Positions 5,451 through 20,506 of a DNA stretch of 64,000 bases are shown here, piece by piece. The translations under genes and the position numbers were made by a program. Within the stretch, counting starts at the first letter, position 1, and every line of letters starts with the position of its first letter. The notes beneath the pieces are model-generated. The model did not search any database, was not told where the DNA came from, and saw nothing but the letters and a program-made list of their open reading frames with translations. The stretch comes from an uncultured Rhodospirillaceae bacterium (lineage in GTDB: Bacteria; Pseudomonadota; Alphaproteobacteria; SP197): the NCBI GenBank assembly GCA_937880925.1, contig CALGGB010000312.1, positions 60 to 64,059 on the forward strand. The letters are read 5' to 3'.

Positions 5451-5957
5451 GTGAACCGATTCCTCGATCGCCTGAGCGCTCTTGCCGTTGCGCTGGTTAT
5501 TGCCTCAACCGCAATCCCGGCAACCGCCGCCGACCTGCCCGAACCCACCGGGGAGGTCATCCTGACCGTCAGCGATCGCGCCGGCGATACCGTGGCGCGT
5601 TTCGACCGTGCCATGCTGGAGGCCCTGCCCCAGACCACGGTGGCGACCTCGACCGACTGGACCGACGGCCAGCCGGTCTTCACCGGCCCCCTGGCACGTG
5701 ACGTGCTGGCCGCCGCGGGCGTCTCGGGCACCATCGTCGATGCCGGCGCGCTCAACGACTACCATGTCACCTTTCCCGCGGCCGACTTCGCCGACTGGGA
5801 CGTCATCCTGGCGATGACCATGGACGGCACGCCGCTTTCGGTGCGCGACAAAGGGCCGATCTGGATCGTCTATCCGCGCGACGATAATCCCGGACTCGCC
5901 AATCCGGAGGTCAACTCCCGCTGGGTCTGGCAGCTCCAGAGCCTGACCCTCGACTGA
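5451..5957 (+). CDS. periplasmic protein of unknown function (signal peptide), encoded immediately upstream of the hybrid sensor kinase
   Basis: GTG start with a GGAGA RBS 6 nt upstream. The N-terminus (NRFLDRLSALAVALVIASTAIPATAADLPEPTG) is a Sec signal peptide. The gene ends 4 nt before the kinase gene. Confidence 0.5.
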   Translation: MNRFLDRLSALAVALVIASTAIPATAADLPEPTGEVILTVSDRAGDTVARFDRAMLEALPQTTVATSTDWTDGQPVFTGPLARDVLAAAGVSGTIVDAGALNDYHVTFPAADFADWDVILAMTMDGTPLSVRDKGPIWIVYPRDDNPGLANPEVNSRWVWQLQSLTLD

Positions 5958-5961
5958 TCCC

Positions 5962-8508
5962 GTGACCGCGCCGCTCGCCACACGTCATCGCACGCTGCTG
6001 GGGGCGATCGCCCTCCTGCTGGTGGCGATGGCCGTGGCGGCCGGCACCCTGCTGGACCGCGAGCGGTCCATGCAGCAGCTTTCCAAGGAGCAGGTCTACT
6101 GGTCGGTCGCCCAGGCCGAAATCGAGCTTTACCGCTTCGTGACCGCGCTGGAGGCCTTCGGGCGGGGCGAACCCGGCATTGACCACGCGGATGTCGTGCA
6201 GCGCTTCGACATCTTCTGGAGCCGCATGGGCCTGTTCGAGGGCGGCGATATCGCACAGCGCGTCCTGTCCTTCGAAAATGCCGCCGAGGCCGTCGAGGCC
6301 GCCCGCCAGGTGATGATCGCCGAGGAAGCCGCGGTGATGAACCTGGAGGCCGGCAACGGGGCGAAAATCTCACGCCTGCACGAACGTTTCGAAGAGGCCG
6401 GCCTTGCACTCCATCGCCTGGCCGTGGCGGTGAACCAGGCCGAGATTGCCCTGCTCGCCGACCTCCGCGAACAGCTGCGCGCCGAGGTCTTTTCCCTGAT
6501 CGCCATCGTCGGCGGCATGGTCTCGGGCGGCGCCGTGCTCGTCCTGCTGCTGCTGCGCGAGAACCGGCGCAACCGGGCCCTGGCGCTGTTCAACCGCCAG
6601 TTCGTTGCCGCTTCCGATGCCTCGACCTCGGCCATCATGCTGTGCCGGCGTCAGGACGACCGCATGATCGTGGACTACGCCAACGCCGTCTTCCGGCGCC
6701 TGGCCGGCCAGGGCGAGGTCGTGGGGGCCGAACCTTCGATCCTCTTCTCGCGGCGCCTGAGCCCGGCCTTCACCGCTCCTCTGGAGGACGCGCTGGCGCG
6801 CGGTGAGCCGGTGGTCGGCCTTGACCTGCCGTTGGAGCGCGCCGGCACACGCCTGTGGCAGCGCCTGCAGGTGACGCCGGTAGCCGGCGACGAGGGCCGC
6901 ATCGATGCCCTGATGATCAAGATGGACGACGTCACCCCGGAAGTGGAGGGCCGGCGCCAGATCGAGGACGCGCGCGACGAGGCGATGCGCGCCAACGCCG
7001 CCAAGTCGCGCTTCGTCGCGGTGATGAGCCACGAGATTCGCACGCCCATGAACGGTGTGCTCGGCGCCCTGGGCCTGATCGCCCAGCGCAACCACGATGG
7101 CGAGCTCGACGGCCTGATCGGCACCGCGCAGGCCAGCGGCGAGGCCCTGCTCGCCATCCTCAACGACGTGCTCGACATCACGCGCATGGAGGCCGGCCAG
7201 CTTCGGCTCGATCCGGCGCCGCTCGACCTTGCCGGCCTGGTGCGCTCGGTCGCCGATGCCTGGTCGCCGCTCGCCGCCGAGAGGGGCGTTGCGCTGGTCT
7301 GGCATATGGCGCCGCAGGTGCCGCCCCATGTGACGGCCGACGCCGCCCGTCTGCGCCAGATGCTGGTCAACCTGGTCGCCAATGCCGTGAAGTTCACCGA
7401 CGCCGGACAGATCGCCATCGAGATCGCCATGAGCACAGGCTCACCGGCAACCGTGCGCTTCGAGGTGCGCGACAGCGGCCCTGGCATCGATCCCGCCGAT
7501 TTCGGCCGGCTGTTCCGCGAATATGACCAGATCGCCCAGCACGGGCGCGGCGGTACGGGTCTGGGCCTTGCCATCGTGCGGCGCCTGGCCGAGCTGATGG
7601 ACGGCAGCGTCGGCGTCGATTCGGTACCCGGCCAGGGCAGCACCTTCCATTTCGAGCTGCCCCTGCCGGCGGCGGAAGCCCCGCCCGCCCGCCCGGCACA
7701 GGCCGATTTCGCGCTGCAGGGCATCGACGTCCTGGTCGCCGAGGACAACGCGACCAACCGGCTGATCGTCTCCGAGATCCTCAAGGACCTGGGCTGCAGC
7801 GTGCGTCTGGCAACCAACGGCGCCGAGGCCGTGGCCATGGCCCGGGACCCGGTTCCCGACATCGTCCTGATGGACATCGCCATGCCGGAGATGGACGGCC
7901 ACGAGGCCCACGCCCGCCTGCGCGCCGCATCGGGCCGTCTTGCCCGCGTGCCGGTGGTGGCGCTGACCGCCTATGCCATGGCCGACGAGGTGGCAGGCTT
8001 CCTGGCCGAAGGCTTCGATGCCGTGCTGCCCAAGCCGGTGGGACGCGAGGCACTGGGCGAGACCCTGCAGCGCCTGGCCGGGCGGCCCGCGCCGGCGCCG
8101 GCGGCCTCTCCCGCAGCTTGCCCGGGAACCGCCGGCGCGGTCGACCGGGAGGTCCTGAACGCTCTGCTCGCCAGCCTGGGAAGCGAGACTTCCGCCCAGC
8201 TCGTCGGGAGTTTCCTTGACGATGTCGGCGCCGCCCTGATCCGTATCGAGGAAGCGCTCGGCGAGGGCAACCTCGCGCGGCTGGAACGCGACAGCCACAT
8301 TCTTTCGGGCCTTGCGCCGACCTTCGGCCTGATACCCCTGTCGCAGGCGGCGCGCGCCCTTAACCGCGCCTGCCGCGCAGGCGACCAGGAAACCGCCCTG
8401 GCCCAGGCCAGGCTGCTGGTGCCCTGCGGCCGGGAGGGTCTTGCCGCATTCCGCAAGGTGACCGTGGAGGCGGGTTTTGCGACACTGTCGCACGCCACCA
8501 CGGCATGA
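5962..8508 (+). CDS. hybrid sensor histidine kinase / response regulator with C-terminal Hpt domain
   Basis: Two TM segments flank a ~150-aa periplasmic loop. They are followed by a HisKA H-box (MSHEIRTPMNGVLG), HATPase_c N/G boxes, a REC domain (VLVAEDNATNRLIV…DIVLMDIAMPEMDG) and an Hpt-like C-terminus (…LERDSHILSGLAPTFGL). Confidence 0.9.
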   Translation: MTAPLATRHRTLLGAIALLLVAMAVAAGTLLDRERSMQQLSKEQVYWSVAQAEIELYRFVTALEAFGRGEPGIDHADVVQRFDIFWSRMGLFEGGDIAQRVLSFENAAEAVEAARQVMIAEEAAVMNLEAGNGAKISRLHERFEEAGLALHRLAVAVNQAEIALLADLREQLRAEVFSLIAIVGGMVSGGAVLVLLLLRENRRNRALALFNRQFVAASDASTSAIMLCRRQDDRMIVDYANAVFRRLAGQGEVVGAEPSILFSRRLSPAFTAPLEDALARGEPVVGLDLPLERAGTRLWQRLQVTPVAGDEGRIDALMIKMDDVTPEVEGRRQIEDARDEAMRANAAKSRFVAVMSHEIRTPMNGVLGALGLIAQRNHDGELDGLIGTAQASGEALLAILNDVLDITRMEAGQLRLDPAPLDLAGLVRSVADAWSPLAAERGVALVWHMAPQVPPHVTADAARLRQMLVNLVANAVKFTDAGQIAIEIAMSTGSPATVRFEVRDSGPGIDPADFGRLFREYDQIAQHGRGGTGLGLAIVRRLAELMDGSVGVDSVPGQGSTFHFELPLPAAEAPPARPAQADFALQGIDVLVAEDNATNRLIVSEILKDLGCSVRLATNGAEAVAMARDPVPDIVLMDIAMPEMDGHEAHARLRAASGRLARVPVVALTAYAMADEVAGFLAEGFDAVLPKPVGREALGETLQRLAGRPAPAPAASPAACPGTAGAVDREVLNALLASLGSETSAQLVGSFLDDVGAALIRIEEALGEGNLARLERDSHILSGLAPTFGLIPLSQAARALNRACRAGDQETALAQARLLVPCGREGLAAFRKVTVEAGFATLSHATTA

Positions 8509-8518
8509 CGGAGCGATC

Positions 8519-9928
<1,410 letters not shown>

Positions 9929-9940
9929 CCTCCCCGATCG

Positions 9941-9953
9941 TTGCATTCCGCAA
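9941..9953 (+). promoter_or_regulatory. candidate LuxO/NtrC-type activator binding site TTGCATTCCGCAA
   Basis: Matches the Vibrio LuxO box TTGCA-N3-TGCAA at 12 of 13 positions. It lies ~120 nt upstream of a sigma-54 promoter-like element. Confidence 0.4.
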
Positions 9954-10070
9954 AGTCCGGCGTTGCGAAGCGCCAAGCCGTGGCAGGTCGGGTGGCATCA
10001 GTCATGCCAACCTGATCGCTACCTCTCGGAAAACTGTAGATATTTCAACAATTTGAAGATTCGTGCCGTG

Positions 10071-10086
10071 TGGCACAGGACTTGAA
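10071..10086 (+). promoter_or_regulatory. sigma-54 (-24/-12) promoter-like element TGGCAC-N5-TTGAA
   Basis: TGGCACAGGACTTGAA has a perfect -24 GG context and a TTGA in place of the -12 TTGC. It sits ~75 nt upstream of the secreted-protein ORF and directly downstream of the luxO-like gene. Confidence 0.45.
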
Positions 10087-10161
10087 ACTCCCGTCACAAC
10101 CAAGCCGTCCCGGCTGGAAGACATCACGGCGCCGCACGGCGCTCTCAACGGGAGTACACAC

Positions 10162-10639
10162 CATGAAGACCTTCGTTTCGGCTACCGCCTTTGCCGCCTT
10201 TGTCGCGATCGCCGCCGGCTCGGCCATGGCCGACTCCTCAAAAAGCAGCACGGGCGATGTACGCCTGACCGGCACGATGCCCGCAATCTGCGAGATCGAC
10301 GTCGACACCAAGAACACCGCCATCGACATGCAGGAAGGCGCCAAGAAGCAGGTCGTCGCCGAGATCACCGAGACCTGCAACGACCACGAGGGCTACACGA
10401 TCAGCTTCACCTCGGAGAACGAGGGCAAGATCGTCCATGGCGAGAGCGGCCAGGGCATCGGCTACACCGTGAGCTACGACAGCGCCAGCAACAGCGCCCT
10501 CGACAAGAGCCTGATCGTGAACCGCGCCAAGGAAGGCTATGGCGTCGAGCATGACCTGATCGTCGACATGTCGGGCAGCAACGACCGCGTCGCCGGCACC
10601 TACCGCGACACCATCACGATCCAGATCGCCGCGAAGTAA
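10162..10639 (+). CDS. secreted protein, spore-coat-U (SCPU)/Csu-pilin-like domain
   Basis: A strong signal peptide (MKTFVSATAFAAFVAIAAGSAMA|D) and a GGGAG RBS are present. The size (~159 aa) and the C-terminal …AGTYRDTITIQIAAK resemble the SCPU-domain ending aGtYtDtvtvtv. Assignment is from memory of the family pattern. Confidence 0.45.
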
Positions 10640-10690
10640 GCGAGAACCCACCGGGTCGCCGTACCTCCCCCAACAGGTGCGACCCGGACC

Positions 10691-10772
10691 GGAGCCGCGG
10701 TTGCTCGCGCTGCCGCGGCTCCACACTACCGCGCCGCGGTCCCTCACCCGGGACCGCGGCGTCGGCCGTTTT
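10691..10772 (+). terminator. tandem GC-rich hairpins between convergent genes (bidirectional terminator region)
   Basis: GGAGCCGCGG-N12-CCGCGGCTCC is a 10-bp stem. It is followed by GCCGCGGTCCC-N6-GGGACCGCGGC and then gtcggccgTTTT. Confidence 0.5.
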
Positions 10773-10778
10773 GGGGGC

Positions 10779-11876
10779 TCAGTCTGCCCGGCCGCCGCGC
10801 ACGACGTAGTCGTAGCTCGCCGGCATGGGCAGGGCCGCCAGGCGGCCGAGGTCGCGGGCGGCATGAAACGGCCAGTAGGCGTCCATGAGCGAGGCGGTGG
10901 CGATCAGCGCCATGTCGGCCTCGCCCTTCTTGATGATGGCGTCGGCCTGCCCGGCCGTAGCGATCTGGCCGACTGCCGCGGTAGCGATCCCGGCCTCCGT
11001 GCGGATGCGGTGGGCGAACGGCACCTGGTAGCCCGGGCCGTAGGGGATGTCCTCCACCGGCACGGCGTAGCCCGAACTGCAGTCGATGAGGTCGACGCCT
11101 TCCTTTTTCATCATCTCGGCGAGCACCACGGAGTCCTCAAGGGTCCAGCCGCCTGGCGCCCAGTCGACGCAGGAGATGCGTACGGCCAGCGGCATGGCAT
11201 CGGGCATCACGGCGCGGCAGGCGCGCACCAGCTCCATGGGAAAGCGTGAGCGGCCCATGAAGTCGCCGCCCCAGCGGTCGCTGCGGTCGTTGACCAGCGG
11301 ACTCATGAACTGGTGGGCGAGATAGCCGTGGGCGGCATGAATCTCGATCATGTCGAAGCCTGCCGCGATGGACCGGCGCGCGGCCTCACCGAAAGCCGCG
11401 ATGACCTCGGCGATGCCGGCCTCATCCAGCGCCGTAGGCGTGTGGACAAGCGCGCCGCCCGGACCATCGAAGGGTCTGGCGACGCTGGAGACGGTCTGCC
11501 AGGCGCCCTCCTCGGCCGTGAGCGTGCGGTCGCCCTGCCAGGGCACAGTGGCATTGGACTTGCGCCCGGCATGGGCGATCTGCATGCAGCTTGCAGCACC
11601 ATTGGCCCGGATCGCCGCGGTGATCTGGGCCAGCTTCTCGATGTGATCGTCCTTCCAGATGCCAAGACAGCCCGGCGTAATGCGCCCGCGCGCCTCGACG
11701 CCCGAGGCCTCGGCGATCACCAGACCTGCGCCGCCCACGGCGCGGCTGGCCAGATGCACGAGGTGCCAGTCGCTGGCAAAGCCGTCATCCGAGACGTACT
11801 GGCACATCGGCGAGATGCCGATGCGGTTGCGCATCGTCAGGCCGCGCAGCGTGAGGGGAGCGAAGAGATCGGTCAT
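10779..11876 (-). CDS. NADH:flavin oxidoreductase, Old Yellow Enzyme family
   Basis: Starts MTDLFAPLTLRGLTMRNRIGISPMCQY, the OYE N-terminal signature, and HGAHGYLAHQFMSP is its active-site region. I take the ATG at 11876 (AGGAAC RBS) as start; the ORF from 11942 is an upstream extension. Confidence 0.85.
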   Translation of the reverse strand: MTDLFAPLTLRGLTMRNRIGISPMCQYVSDDGFASDWHLVHLASRAVGGAGLVIAEASGVEARGRITPGCLGIWKDDHIEKLAQITAAIRANGAASCMQIAHAGRKSNATVPWQGDRTLTAEEGAWQTVSSVARPFDGPGGALVHTPTALDEAGIAEVIAAFGEAARRSIAAGFDMIEIHAAHGYLAHQFMSPLVNDRSDRWGGDFMGRSRFPMELVRACRAVMPDAMPLAVRISCVDWAPGGWTLEDSVVLAEMMKKEGVDLIDCSSGYAVPVEDIPYGPGYQVPFAHRIRTEAGIATAAVGQIATAGQADAIIKKGEADMALIATASLMDAYWPFHAARDLGRLAALPMPASYDYVVRGGRAD

Positions 11877-12002
11877 GGGGGATGTTCCTGAAGGGACGGG
11901 CTGGGCGCACACCGATAACGCGCGACGGCGGGCCGCGTCCATCGCGGCATCGCGCGGCCACGGCCAAACGCGTTAAGGTGGCCGTCCCAGCGCGGAGCCG
12001 CC

Positions 12003-18741: not shown

Positions 18742-19095
18742 GGGACGTCCGCGGGCGGAGACGCACATCACCGACCGTCATCCCGGACAAGGCGCCCCCA
18801 ATCAAGTCGGGGGCAGGCTCCGCGCCGCAGATCCGGGACCTATGCCGGAACGCAATCAATGGCGCCGGCGCTTGTGTAGGCGTTCCGGCATGGGTCCCGG
18901 GTTCCGCGCTTCGCACGGCCCCGGGATGACGGGAGATCGAGGGGCGCGTACGCCGCGCATTCATGTGGCCTACCCCTGCCCCTCTGCCCGAGTCCTGTGC
19001 ATTGCACTGCACAATGAAACGGCAGGAGTCCTGACCTGCTCCGTCGCACGATTCCCAAGCCATTGATTCAACTTGCTCTTTTTTCCCGGCCGAAC

Positions 19096-19110
19096 TGGCA
19101 CATCGCTTGA
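19096..19110 (+). promoter_or_regulatory. sigma-54 promoter-like element TGGCAC-N5-TTGAA upstream of amtB
   Basis: TGGCACATCGCTTGAA lies ~85 nt upstream of the amtB ATG. It has the same deviant -12 (TTGA) as the element at 10071. Confidence 0.45.
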
Positions 19111-19195
19111 AATAGCGACTCCCGTCGGCTGCGCATGCTGCGCGGCCTATTCGGGGAGACAGCCGCAAAGAGCGGCATCACGGGGAGAAGACATC

Positions 19196-20506
19196 ATGCG
19201 CAAGTTCCTGCCACCCGGGCTCATCGCCCTTGCCGCTCTGCTGGTGCTGCCCTCGCTGGCGCACGCCGAGGTCGATGCTGAAACAGCCTACATCCTCAAT
19301 ACCTTCTCATTCCTGGTTAACGGCGCCCTGGTCATGTGGATGGCCGCCGGTTTCGCCATGCTGGAAGCCGGAATGGTGCGGACCAAGTCCGTGGCGACGA
19401 TCTGCCTCAAGAACGTCGTCCTCTTCGCGATCGCGGGCATCGCTTACTACGCCGTCGGTTACAACCTGATGTACGACGGGGTCGATGGGGGTTTCATCGG
19501 CTCGATCGGGCTCTGGGGGGCTAGCGACGAGGGCGCGGCAGAAGGCATCTTTGAAGGCTACGCCGCGTCCTCGGACTGGTTCTTCCAGATGGTCTTTGTC
19601 GCCACCGCCGCCTCGATCGTTTCGGGCGCGGTTGCCGAGCGGATCAAGCTGTGGTGCTTCCTGGCCTTCACCGCCGTTCTGACCGCGGTCATCTACCCCA
19701 TCGAGGGTGCATGGCAGTGGGGCGGCGGCTGGTTTTCCGAGATGGGTTTCTACGATTTTGCAGGCTCGACCATCGTGCATTCGACCGGCGGCTGGGCGGC
19801 GCTCACCGGCGTCCTGATCCTTGGCGCGCGTCGCGGCAAGTACGGCGAAAAGGGTGAGATCCGCCTGATGGCGCCCTCCTCCCTGCCGCTGGCAACCCTG
19901 GGTACCTTCATCCTTTGGCTGGGCTGGTTCGGCTTCAACGGCGGTTCGCAGCTTGCCCTGGGTTCGGGCATGGATGCGGTTGCCATGGCCAACATCTACG
20001 CCAACACCTGCGTTGCCGCGATGGGCGGCGTCGTGGTTGCGGCCATCGCCACCCAGCTCATCTACCGCAAGGTCGACCTGACCATGGTGCTCAACGGCGC
20101 GCTGGCGGGTCTCGTCTCGATCACGGCCGGTCCCGACACGCCGGGCCTGGGCGGCGCCATCCTGATCGGCGGCGTCGGTGCGGCGATCGTGATGGTCGGC
20201 GTGCCCCTGCTCGACAAGCTGAAGATCGACGACGTGGTGGGCGCCATTCCGGTCCATCTCTTCGCCGGCATCTGGGGCACCATGGCGGTTCCCCTCACCA
20301 ACCCCGACACGTCCTTTGTCACGCAAGGCATCGGTGTCGTGGCCATCGGCGCCTTTGTCGCCGTGGCCAGCGCCATCGTCTGGATGCTGCTGAAGGCCAC
20401 CGTCGGTCTGCGGGTTTCCGCCGAGGACGAGGAGACCGGTCTCGACCGGGTCGAACTCGGCATATCCGCCTATCCGGAGTTCAGCCGCGACTCGATCGCG
20501 GTCTGA
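19196..20506 (+). CDS. amtB: ammonium transporter AmtB
   Basis: Signal peptide is followed by the Amt signatures (…NGALVMWMAAGFAMLEAGMVRTKS…, …DFAGSTIVHSTGGWAALTGVLILGAR…) and 11 TM helices. Confidence 0.9.
   Translation: MRKFLPPGLIALAALLVLPSLAHAEVDAETAYILNTFSFLVNGALVMWMAAGFAMLEAGMVRTKSVATICLKNVVLFAIAGIAYYAVGYNLMYDGVDGGFIGSIGLWGASDEGAAEGIFEGYAASSDWFFQMVFVATAASIVSGAVAERIKLWCFLAFTAVLTAVIYPIEGAWQWGGGWFSEMGFYDFAGSTIVHSTGGWAALTGVLILGARRGKYGEKGEIRLMAPSSLPLATLGTFILWLGWFGFNGGSQLALGSGMDAVAMANIYANTCVAAMGGVVVAAIATQLIYRKVDLTMVLNGALAGLVSITAGPDTPGLGGAILIGGVGAAIVMVGVPLLDKLKIDDVVGAIPVHLFAGIWGTMAVPLTNPDTSFVTQGIGVVAIGAFVAVASAIVWMLLKATVGLRVSAEDEETGLDRVELGISAYPEFSRDSIAV

Follow-up and report, generated by a model that had tools for sequence, protein, structure and literature searches.

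Can a LuxO-type regulator act on a structural gene directly, with no Qrr small RNA (sRNA) in between? The question is raised by a stretch of 64,000 nucleotides (nt) from an uncultured Rhodospirillaceae bacterium (contig CALGGB010000312.1; the whole stretch is called the window below), in which the gene of a LuxO-like response regulator is followed on the same strand by two LuxO-type boxes, a sigma-54-type promoter and the gene of a secreted protein resembling the SCPU/Csu pilins. LuxO is among the best-studied bacterial signal integrators, and the knowledge about it comes essentially all from Vibrionaceae. What computation shows is that the boxes and the promoter are there, are conserved and recur elsewhere, and to which family and fold each of the two proteins belongs. 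With a probability of roughly 0.7, we propose that the promoter is enhancer-dependent, is used by the adjacent LuxO-like regulator and drives the Csu/SCPU-type pilin-like gene directly, without a Qrr. The pilin-like gene would then be a probable direct target of a LuxO-family activator. A sequence-only reading of this DNA had put the gene forward as a candidate LuxO target of this kind, and the computational comparison supports the candidacy. The proposal involves the following features.

5962 to 8508, plus strand: membrane-bound hybrid histidine kinase of 848 amino acids (aa), with the Pfam domains PAS, HisKA, HATPase, REC and Hpt and two transmembrane segments
8519 to 9928, plus strand: LuxO-like sigma-54 enhancer-binding response regulator of 469 aa, with REC, AAA+ and a Fis-type helix-turn-helix (HTH)
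9941 to 9953, no strand: upstream activating sequence (UAS) box 1, TTGCATTCCGCAA, a LuxO-type inverted repeat centred at about -150 from the predicted start
9964 to 9977, no strand: UAS box 2, TTGCGAAGCGCCAA, with TTGC/GCAA arms; the orthologue consensus is TTGCGAAGCGGCAA
10043 to 10055, plus strand: tentative IHF-like site, TTTCAACAATTTG, one mismatch from WATCAANNNNTTR, in an A+T-rich dip
10071 to 10086, plus strand: sigma-54-type promoter, TGGCACAGGACTTGAA, of the form TGGCAC-N5-TTGAA, with a canonical -24 element and a predicted start at about 10096-10098
10097 to 10162, plus strand: predicted 5′ untranslated region of about 66 nt, with small hairpins at about 10101-10117 and at about 10128-10143; its Shine-Dalgarno sequence is GGGAG (10150-10154)
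10163 to 10639, plus strand: gene of the secreted SCPU/Csu-pilin-like protein of 158 aa, with ATG at 10163, stop codon at 10637-10639 and the C-terminus ...AGTYRDTITIQIAAK

Boxes and promoter downstream of the luxO-like gene

The luxO-like open reading frame (ORF) has its stop codon at 9926-9928 and is followed by an intergenic region of 234 nt up to the ATG at 10163. Three motifs, TTGCATTCCGCAA, TTGCGAAGCGCCAA and TGGCACAGGACTTGAA, had been picked out here by the sequence-only reading, and all of them were confirmed at their positions. Box 1 is indeed near the consensus and matches 9 of the 10 specified bases of TTGCA-N3-TGCAA (first given as 12 of 13 positions); the secreted ORF stands with a length of 158 instead of 159 aa. 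Box 2 begins 23 nt after box 1, which is about two helical turns; measured from where the -24 element starts, boxes 1 and 2 begin 130 and 107 nt further upstream. Between them and the promoter, the G+C fraction goes down to 0.46 (10000-10099) against a local background of about 0.67, and the IHF-like site lies in this dip. Compared with the pattern TGGCAC-N5-TTGCW, the -24 TGGCAC and the spacing are exact, and the -12 reads TTGA, not TTGC. The upstream activator sites and the neighbouring activator gene that go with a sigma-54 promoter are both present, the former as two conserved boxes, and no sigma-70-like promoter was found in 9700-11000.

In the 64 kb of the window, one LuxO box with at most one mismatch was found against 1.46 expected from shuffled sequence, and 12 sigma-54-like sites against 8.7 expected. 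For a box placed 40-260 nt ahead of a sigma-54-like site, Markov-1 simulations give an expectation of 0.055 occurrences in 64 kb. A further box/promoter pair inside luxO (9192 and 9116, minus strand), with two mismatches in the box, two in the promoter and both in coding sequence, was treated as chance.

The decisive evidence comes from comparison with related loci. The 158-aa protein has eight close relatives only among 5.8 billion clusters. Eight loci with 63-100% protein identity (63-89% for the seven besides the window) were used for the orthologue comparison; column identities were computed on a six-locus alignment and motif counts on an eight-locus alignment. The values obtained for the upstream DNA were as follows.

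Box 1: mean column identity 0.92; 9 of 13 columns invariant
Box 2: mean column identity 0.90; 8 of 14 columns invariant
Sigma-54 element: mean column identity 0.92; 12 of 16 columns invariant
Spacer between the boxes and the sigma-54 element: mean column identity 0.56; 3 of 64 columns invariant

Four conserved islands are seen in the diverged upstream DNA, namely box 1, box 2, the sigma-54 element, and the Shine-Dalgarno sequence with the ATG. Box 1 is a perfect TTGCA-N3-TGCAA at five of the eight loci and has one mismatch at the other three, the window included, while all eight agree exactly in the TGGCAC and CTTGAA of the sigma-54 element. The IHF-like TCAA-N4-TTR, read by eye, is kept in seven of the eight and reaches the perfect consensus in L090 and L117; the column identity of this site is just 0.65. 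Because the boxes and the promoter are conserved across orthologues while the spacer has diverged, they are more than chance occurrences.

The strongest result is that this wiring is found again with much more distant homologues. A metagenome-contig scan with the family alignment and a look-up of further homologues gave 24 non-redundant metagenomic or assembly loci (172 kb) with homologues 31-41% identical to the target protein. Nine pairs of LuxO box and sigma-54 element were found in these 172 kb, eight of them directly upstream of an SCPU-like gene; the boxes, perfect for the most part, begin 82-131 nt ahead of the -24 element. At locus L106, of lower G+C content as judged from its sequence, the SCPU gene is divergent from the locus's own luxO-like gene (minus strand, 50% identity). 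In the intergenic region between the two, a degenerate box is followed by a perfect one that starts 23 nt later, and an A+T-rich stretch and TGGTAC-N5-CTGCT are present as well. Three genes come after this SCPU gene, encoding a histidine kinase with a PAS domain, a stand-alone receiver protein and, on the minus strand, an Hpt protein; the module spans L106:2484-7236. As read from this layout, the pilin gene of L106 occupies a qrr1-like divergent position. A second pair of box and sigma-54 element at L106:1474-1590 precedes an unannotated ORF of 162 aa. At locus L116, two boxes 21 nt apart and TGGCAC-N5-TTGAT head an operon of an SCPU subunit, a PapD-type chaperone and an usher of about 800 aa. 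Box pairs 21-23 nt apart, as in the window, occur in both L116 and L106. The boxes with their sigma-54 promoter, first read from the window, are thus footprinted in orthologues and recurrent upstream of distant homologues. Since the wiring recurs with homologues of 31-41% identity (L106, L116), the link between the LuxO enhancer and the pilin family is older and broader than the window lineage.

Chaperone and usher genes are both present with the homologues of L091, L093, L095 and L116, and a chaperone gene only was found in L110. Each of the chaperone-usher operons of L091, L093 and L095 (metagenome contigs) holds two or three SCPU-like subunit genes that are paralogues of one another. Upstream of the subunit gene examined in L091 and L095, neither a LuxO box nor a sigma-54 element was found; therefore, LuxO-type control covers only part of the SCPU-like family.

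Perfect LuxO boxes were also counted around 80 luxO-like genes, where 12 were found in 897 kb against 1.3 expected. Judged by this enrichment, the LuxO DNA site seems to travel with the LuxO-like protein. Some of these boxes, in Magnetovibrio and Thalassospiraceae, are perfect copies of TTGCAAAATGCAA placed 90-110 nt ahead of the luxO-like start codon (L029:5889-5901, L040:2656-2668, L042:5910-5922 and L048:5912-5924), with no sigma-54 element near the perfect box at any of the four loci; by analogy with Vibrio luxO, these boxes look like autoregulatory sites. Near other luxO-like genes of Rhodospirillales, the Rhizobiaceae group, Nisaea, Oleispira and Aeromonadaceae, LuxO-type boxes and sigma-54-like promoters precede protein genes (L025:1540-1640, L061:1947-2115, L078:9759-9890, L053:9854-9935, L068:8535-8650, L082:785-865 on the minus strand, L077:1973-2100, L041:3781-3900, L047:3678-3790 and L084:5292-5400). 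The boxes at these ten loci are perfect in some cases and have up to two mismatches in others. By N-terminal reading only, the genes there encode receiver-only, PilZ-like, small secreted, STAS and H-NOX-like proteins and NAD-dependent epimerases, and no sRNA gene was evident in the promoter-proximal sequence that was read.

The predicted phosphorelay and the pilin-like protein

Hydropathy peaks of the kinase near residues 9-33 and 174-200 stand on either side of a periplasmic region of about 140 aa, for which Pfam gives no match. The best NCBIfam matches of the kinase are TorS, BarA and LuxQ-type hybrid kinases, each below its own cut-off. The feed from a hybrid kinase to an Hpt that is typical of LuxO is found here at the gene level, HisKA, HATPase, REC and Hpt all being encoded by the upstream neighbour. 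As judged from its domains, the kinase would be a complete phosphorelay feeding the adjacent regulator. No autoinducer synthase gene was recognised among the annotated genes, which cover only part of the window.

The Pfam domains Response_reg, Sigma54_activat, AAA_lid_14 and HTH_8 give the regulator a LuxO-type architecture, and its motifs include Walker A GESGTGKE, a GSFTGA loop, Walker B and an HTH with ...SPSTLYRK. A score of 599.8 bits was obtained against the NCBIfam model LuxO_transreg_Vib (NF041946), NtrC being next with 390. The best match in the PDB is LuxO of Photobacterium angustum (5EP0, 457.6 bits), compared with about 318 bits for NtrC1 (4l4u, 1ny5), and the JGI annotation of the regulator is "repressor protein LuxO". 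Its closest genome-encoded relatives come from Azospirillum and other Rhodospirillales (about 60-64% identity), followed by Aeromonas and Enterovibrio (54-59%); the HTH helix SPST(L/I)YRK is common to the relatives from Aeromonas, Enterovibrio and Azospirillum. The sequence-only reading had called the gene luxO, and the family is right, but the score falls short of the 800 bits set for a LuxO equivalog. By these profile scores, the regulator is clearly closest to LuxO among the families, yet it is LuxO-like and not a certified LuxO equivalog, and it is named LuxO-like rather than LuxO because it lies below the curated cut-off.

The target protein has a hydrophobic, signal-peptide-like N-terminus ending AMA|D (AMA at residue 23, by inspection), the residues Cys43 and Cys72, which are invariant or nearly so among its relatives, and AGxYxDTITxxI as its C-terminal motif. 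In the mature N-terminus, GDVRLTGTMPAI, hydrophobic residues alternate, which is suggestive of donor-strand exchange. Pfam and NCBIfam gave no match for this protein at default thresholds. A resemblance to SCPU/Csu pilins had been proposed together with a profile check against PF05229 (SCPU), which gave E = 0.011 and 16.5 bits over profile positions 9-137 of 138, under the gathering cut-off of 22.4 bits, whereas the homologues of L106 and L116 pass with 30.4 and 27.8 bits. SCPU is the only consistent match at relaxed thresholds and is found in six of eight close relatives. An exhaustive profile search gave 732 family representatives at E ≤ 1e-3, nearly all of 150-170 aa, and 39 of 87 sampled homologues match SCPU at E ≤ 0.01 (best 6.3e-8). 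Because its own Pfam score is below threshold, the assignment of the window protein to the SCPU family rests on its homologues and its fold.

The fold was predicted with AlphaFold. Eight close sequences gave a predicted local distance difference test (pLDDT) of 36, and a 45-sequence alignment gave a pLDDT of 87.2; the AF2 model was used for comparison. In a Foldseek search of the PDB, the top matches were to CsuA/B (7zl4_B, E = 2.3e-4; 6fqa; 6fm5), followed by SafA, Caf1, PsaA and CfaB, almost exclusively chaperone-usher pilins. With E of about 2e-4 and TM scores of just 0.46-0.54, the resemblance to CsuA/B is at the fold level and not close. When three profiles were searched against the PDB sequences, nothing significant came up; the best match was 8cio, an SCPU-domain protein, at E = 0.14, and CsuA/B was reached by fold comparison only. 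On the model, the target is a divergent SCPU-family protein with the predicted Ig-like fold of chaperone-usher pilins. The resemblance proposed earlier thus holds by homologues and fold, and the window protein itself stays below the Pfam threshold.

The proposed mechanism and its rivals

In the proposed mechanism, the hybrid kinase (5962-8508) would relay phosphate via its own REC and Hpt to Asp52 of the LuxO-like regulator (8519-9928). The phosphorylated regulator dimers would bind the boxes at 9941-9953 and 9964-9977 and assemble an active AAA+ oligomer, which would be brought to the sigma-54 RNA polymerase at 10071-10086 by an A+T-rich, IHF-like bend near 10043-10055. The promoter would be opened by ATP hydrolysis, and transcription from about 10097 would give an mRNA with a leader of about 66 nt, ending at hairpins at 10647-10770; from the gene layout, this mRNA is predicted to be monocistronic. 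The encoded pilin-like protein, of Csu/SCPU type, would be secreted by the Sec pathway and would probably serve as a fibre subunit or a surface-coat protein. As no Qrr sRNA intervenes, the LuxO-like regulator would act on the structural gene directly. The paradigms of Vibrio LuxO, SypG and NtrC serve as the model for five points: that this regulator is the one that binds, that phosphorylation activates it, that IHF takes part, where transcription starts, and the function of the protein.

NtrC-type enhancer promoters such as glnAp2 combine two activator dimer sites, a bend or IHF-like site and a -24/-12 promoter. The window shares this general architecture and differs in activator subfamily, DNA site and physiological output.

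In Vibrio, the ancestral qrr1 is upstream of luxO and divergently transcribed (PMC3352281, PMC10162802, PMC10328515). The LuxO consensus has been defined by experiment: the LuxO sites obtained by chromatin immunoprecipitation sequencing (ChIP-seq) in V. cholerae are ttgcaaaatgcaa, ttgcaatttgcaa and ttgcattttgcaa, essentially only at qrr1-4 (PMC10328515), and in V. fischeri the UAS TTGCAWWWTGCAA occurs twice upstream of qrr1, in one case at about -130 (PMC10162802). The window has in common with this system a REC, AAA+, Fis-type HTH regulator fed by a hybrid kinase and an Hpt relay, the TTGCA-N3-TGCAA site, usually in two copies, about 80-150 nt upstream of a -24/-12 promoter (PMC10162802, PMC10328515), and a target that adjoins luxO. 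Unlike in Vibrio, where qrr1 is divergent and lies on the upstream side of luxO (PMC3352281), the target codes for a protein instead of a Qrr sRNA and sits downstream of the luxO-like gene, on its strand. The claim that a qrr gene holds this exact position in Vibrio therefore had to be given up, a qrr1-like divergent position being named for L106 alone. Moreover, the Hpt of the window is fused to the kinase whereas LuxU is separate, and the regulator is under the equivalog cut-off and belongs to a G+C-rich alphaproteobacterium.

The nearest functional precedent is SypG of V. fischeri, a LuxO paralogue with the motif TTCTCANNNTGMDWN, which directly activates the syp biofilm polysaccharide genes via sigma-54 promoters (PMC10162802). 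A LuxO-family activator, sigma-54 promoters, LuxO-like upstream sites and protein-coding surface or biofilm targets are shared by the two cases (PMC10162802); set apart by the published SypG motif and targets, the window has a site of the LuxO consensus and a pilin-like protein as target instead of polysaccharide genes. With the Csu pili of Acinetobacter baumannii, an archaic chaperone-usher system having CsuA/B as major subunit, the window protein shares fold, size, signal peptide, a Cys pair and the C-terminal G-x-Y-x-D-T-(I/V)-T, and it differs in its sequence (about 15% identity) and in being encoded by an orphan gene with no chaperone or usher within 64 kb. The csu genes themselves are under the OmpR-type BfmRS system and are not known to depend on sigma-54. 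Full-text searches of an incomplete library found no literature linking LuxO-type regulators or sigma-54 to SCPU/Csu genes, or characterising alphaproteobacterial LuxO-like regulators.

Several points weigh against direct control by the LuxO-like regulator. Its score is under the LuxO equivalog cut-off, and its loop reads GSFTGA, not GAFTGA. Box 1 of the window carries one mismatch, box 2 is off the 13-nt consensus with a spacer one base longer than that of box 1, and the -12 element is without the canonical GC; by themselves, the motifs of the window are suggestive and not statistically compelling. Neither chaperone nor usher genes were found in the 64-kb window by tblastn with the chaperone and usher of L116, which leaves the target as an orphan subunit gene. 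An SCPU-like gene within 6 kb of a luxO-like gene was found in 0 of 80 reference-genome loci; therefore, the physical linkage is lineage-specific. Finally, there is no intrinsic terminator between the luxO-like and pilin-like genes, so read-through transcription could contribute.

As to the -12 element, the form of promoters in this organism can be compared within the window at a classical sigma-54 target, amtB.

19096 to 19111: second sigma-54-type element, TGGCACATCGCTTGAA, with the same TTGAA at -12, about 140 nt upstream of amtB
19235 to 20506: amtB, ammonium transporter (PF00909, E = 6e-97)

Invariance in orthologues, the TTGAA of amtB, the TTGAT of L116 and the lack of a sigma-70-like site support the view that the promoter would work despite the odd TTGA. 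TGCA-rich repeats at about 19002-19025 upstream of amtB could be NtrC sites. The 19002/19096 pair was rejected as a LuxO target; it belongs to amtB, and its boxes have two mismatches and resemble TGCA-rich, NtrC-type repeats.

Another enhancer-binding protein encoded elsewhere in the genome, either a SypG-like LuxO paralogue or another member of the NtrC family, might use a real promoter and real boxes, the adjacency of the luxO-like gene being incidental. Such a protein has a precedent in V. fischeri SypG, whose sites overlap those of LuxO and which activates protein-coding biofilm genes directly (PMC10162802). Most of the box-bearing distant SCPU-like loci also have no luxO-like gene within the available sequence, and box 2 departs from the LuxO consensus. 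We consider this explanation unlikely, as box 1 is the exact LuxO consensus in most orthologues, while the SypG motif TTCTCANNNTGMDWN (PMC10162802) fits the window site less well. Furthermore, a luxO-like gene is adjacent in all window-clade loci reaching far enough upstream and, independently, in L106, and the boxes are enriched around luxO-like genes in general.

That the motifs are chance or non-regulatory, and that the gene is expressed from a sigma-70 promoter that escaped recognition or through transcripts reading on from the kinase/luxO operon, is very improbable. Boxes and promoter are invariant or nearly so in eight orthologous loci whose spacer has diverged, their pairing recurs upstream of 31-41% identical homologues in unrelated genomic contexts of different G+C content, and no sigma-70-like site was found in 9700-11000. 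These results stand against the facts that a single box at one mismatch or fewer is expected by chance in 64 kb, that sigma-54-like strings are common in this G+C-rich DNA, that no terminator separates the luxO-like and pilin-like genes, and that the -12 element is non-canonical.

The role of RNA at this locus was evaluated from the leader. The Shine-Dalgarno sequence is invariant in the eight-locus alignment, and compensatory changes at 2 of 6 pairs give hairpin 1 modest covariation support. The predicted fold is no better than that of shuffled sequences (z = -0.31), and the Shine-Dalgarno sequence is free in an RNA started at the sigma-54 promoter. Since no terminator interrupts the stretch from 10097 to the ATG at 10163, the transcript begins with an mRNA leader and is not an sRNA. 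Searches with Rfam, at permissive thresholds on 9000-11500 and at the gathering score on the whole window, found nothing credible for Qrr or any other known RNA; neither a covariance-model match to Qrr (RF00378) nor a terminator within 10097-10163 was found, in agreement with the sequence-only reading, which had recognised no Qrr-like sequence. In 13 luxO-like loci, including Enterovibrio, Parasalinivibrio and Aeromonas, Rfam likewise gave no Qrr match, hence no positive control for Qrr detection; these loci are the closest relatives of the window regulator and may be loci of LuxO-like paralogues. At locus L080, an apparent Hpt-type protein is encoded upstream, as read by eye.

The weakest rival, a regulatory RNA acting as a functional analogue of Qrr (the leader as sRNA or a dual-function transcript, the ORF being secondary), is scarcely credible. 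In its favour, its location beside luxO and its promoter type mirror qrr1, and both leader hairpins are conserved and show some compensatory changes. Against it, Rfam gives no match to Qrr or to any other family at the locus or anywhere in the window, no terminator lies between start and ATG, the fold does not exceed shuffles, and the invariant Shine-Dalgarno sequence and ATG with a strongly conserved, well-folding ORF point to the protein as the selected product.

One more element of the leader region deserves mention. ACTCCCGT at 10087-10094, between the -12 element and the predicted start, is the perfect complement of ACGGGAGT at 10148-10155, which includes the Shine-Dalgarno sequence. According to folding, RNA reading through from luxO would sequester the Shine-Dalgarno sequence and the sigma-54-started RNA would not. 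The anti-Shine-Dalgarno 5′ arm is largely kept in seven of the eight orthologues, with single mismatches in three, and is lost in L086. Speculatively, this pairing may be a device silencing read-through transcripts. As a part of the leader of the sigma-54 transcript, the helix of 10087-10094 with 10148-10155 was rejected because its 5′ arm is upstream of the predicted start.

Neighbouring genes and wider meaning

The window appears to be chromosomal, as it carries ftsK and amtB among other genes. Upstream of the pilin-like gene, a tightly packed trio on the plus strand (5451-5957, 5962-8508 and 8519-9928) forms the sensor operon, the first gene of which ends 4 nt before the kinase gene. The remaining features around the locus are given below.

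5451 to 5957, plus strand: gene of a 168-aa protein with an Oxidored_molyb-like domain (PF00174, E = 7.7e-07) and an N-terminal signal-like hydrophobic segment
10647 to 10770, no strand: three strong G+C-rich hairpins in the stretch separating the convergent pilin-like and Old-Yellow-Enzyme-family genes (minimum free energy -95.7 kcal/mol; z = -7.2 relative to shuffled sequences)
10779 to 11942, minus strand: convergent gene of the Old-Yellow-Enzyme family, beyond the hairpins 3′ of the pilin-like gene

The product of 5451-5957 is a possible periplasmic co-sensor, and by analogy it may partner the sensor as LuxP partners LuxQ. In L077, the gene of a secreted protein similar in size and N-terminal sequence to this product comes after a LuxO box and a sigma-54 promoter. 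The hairpins at 10647-10770, the last of which is followed by GUUUUG, are a probable bidirectional terminator region; a simple terminator scan did not call them. One of the hairpins gave a weak, chance-level match to the sar RNA model of Rfam at permissive thresholds.

The comparative signal is unusually clean and, as far as it can be read from sequence, points to a general Qrr-less regulon. The wiring of the window suggests that, outside Vibrio, relatives of LuxO turn on genes for surface structures without an intermediate. We tentatively go further, at somewhat less than even odds, and suppose that LuxO-family phosphorelays outside Vibrionaceae are a widespread Qrr-less pathway, the ancestral output of which would be the direct sigma-54 activation of surface and biofilm genes. 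Archaic chaperone-usher (Csu/SCPU) pilins would be its recurrent core target, with PilZ, receiver-only, STAS and sugar-epimerase genes as further candidates, and the Qrr layer would be a later insertion in Vibrionaceae. As part of the same supposition, the window lineage would have captured an orphan pilin-like gene beside luxO, and the anti-Shine-Dalgarno sequence between -12 and +1 would silence read-through from luxO so that only enhancer-activated transcripts are translated.

If the proposed direct control is true, it would give a first defined target to the many LuxO-like regulators of Rhodospirillales and other non-Vibrio groups. Archaic chaperone-usher pili, structures that serve in adhesion and biofilms, would also be tied to a phosphorelay of the quorum-sensing type, and the role of LuxO before the Qrr sRNAs would become a testable question.

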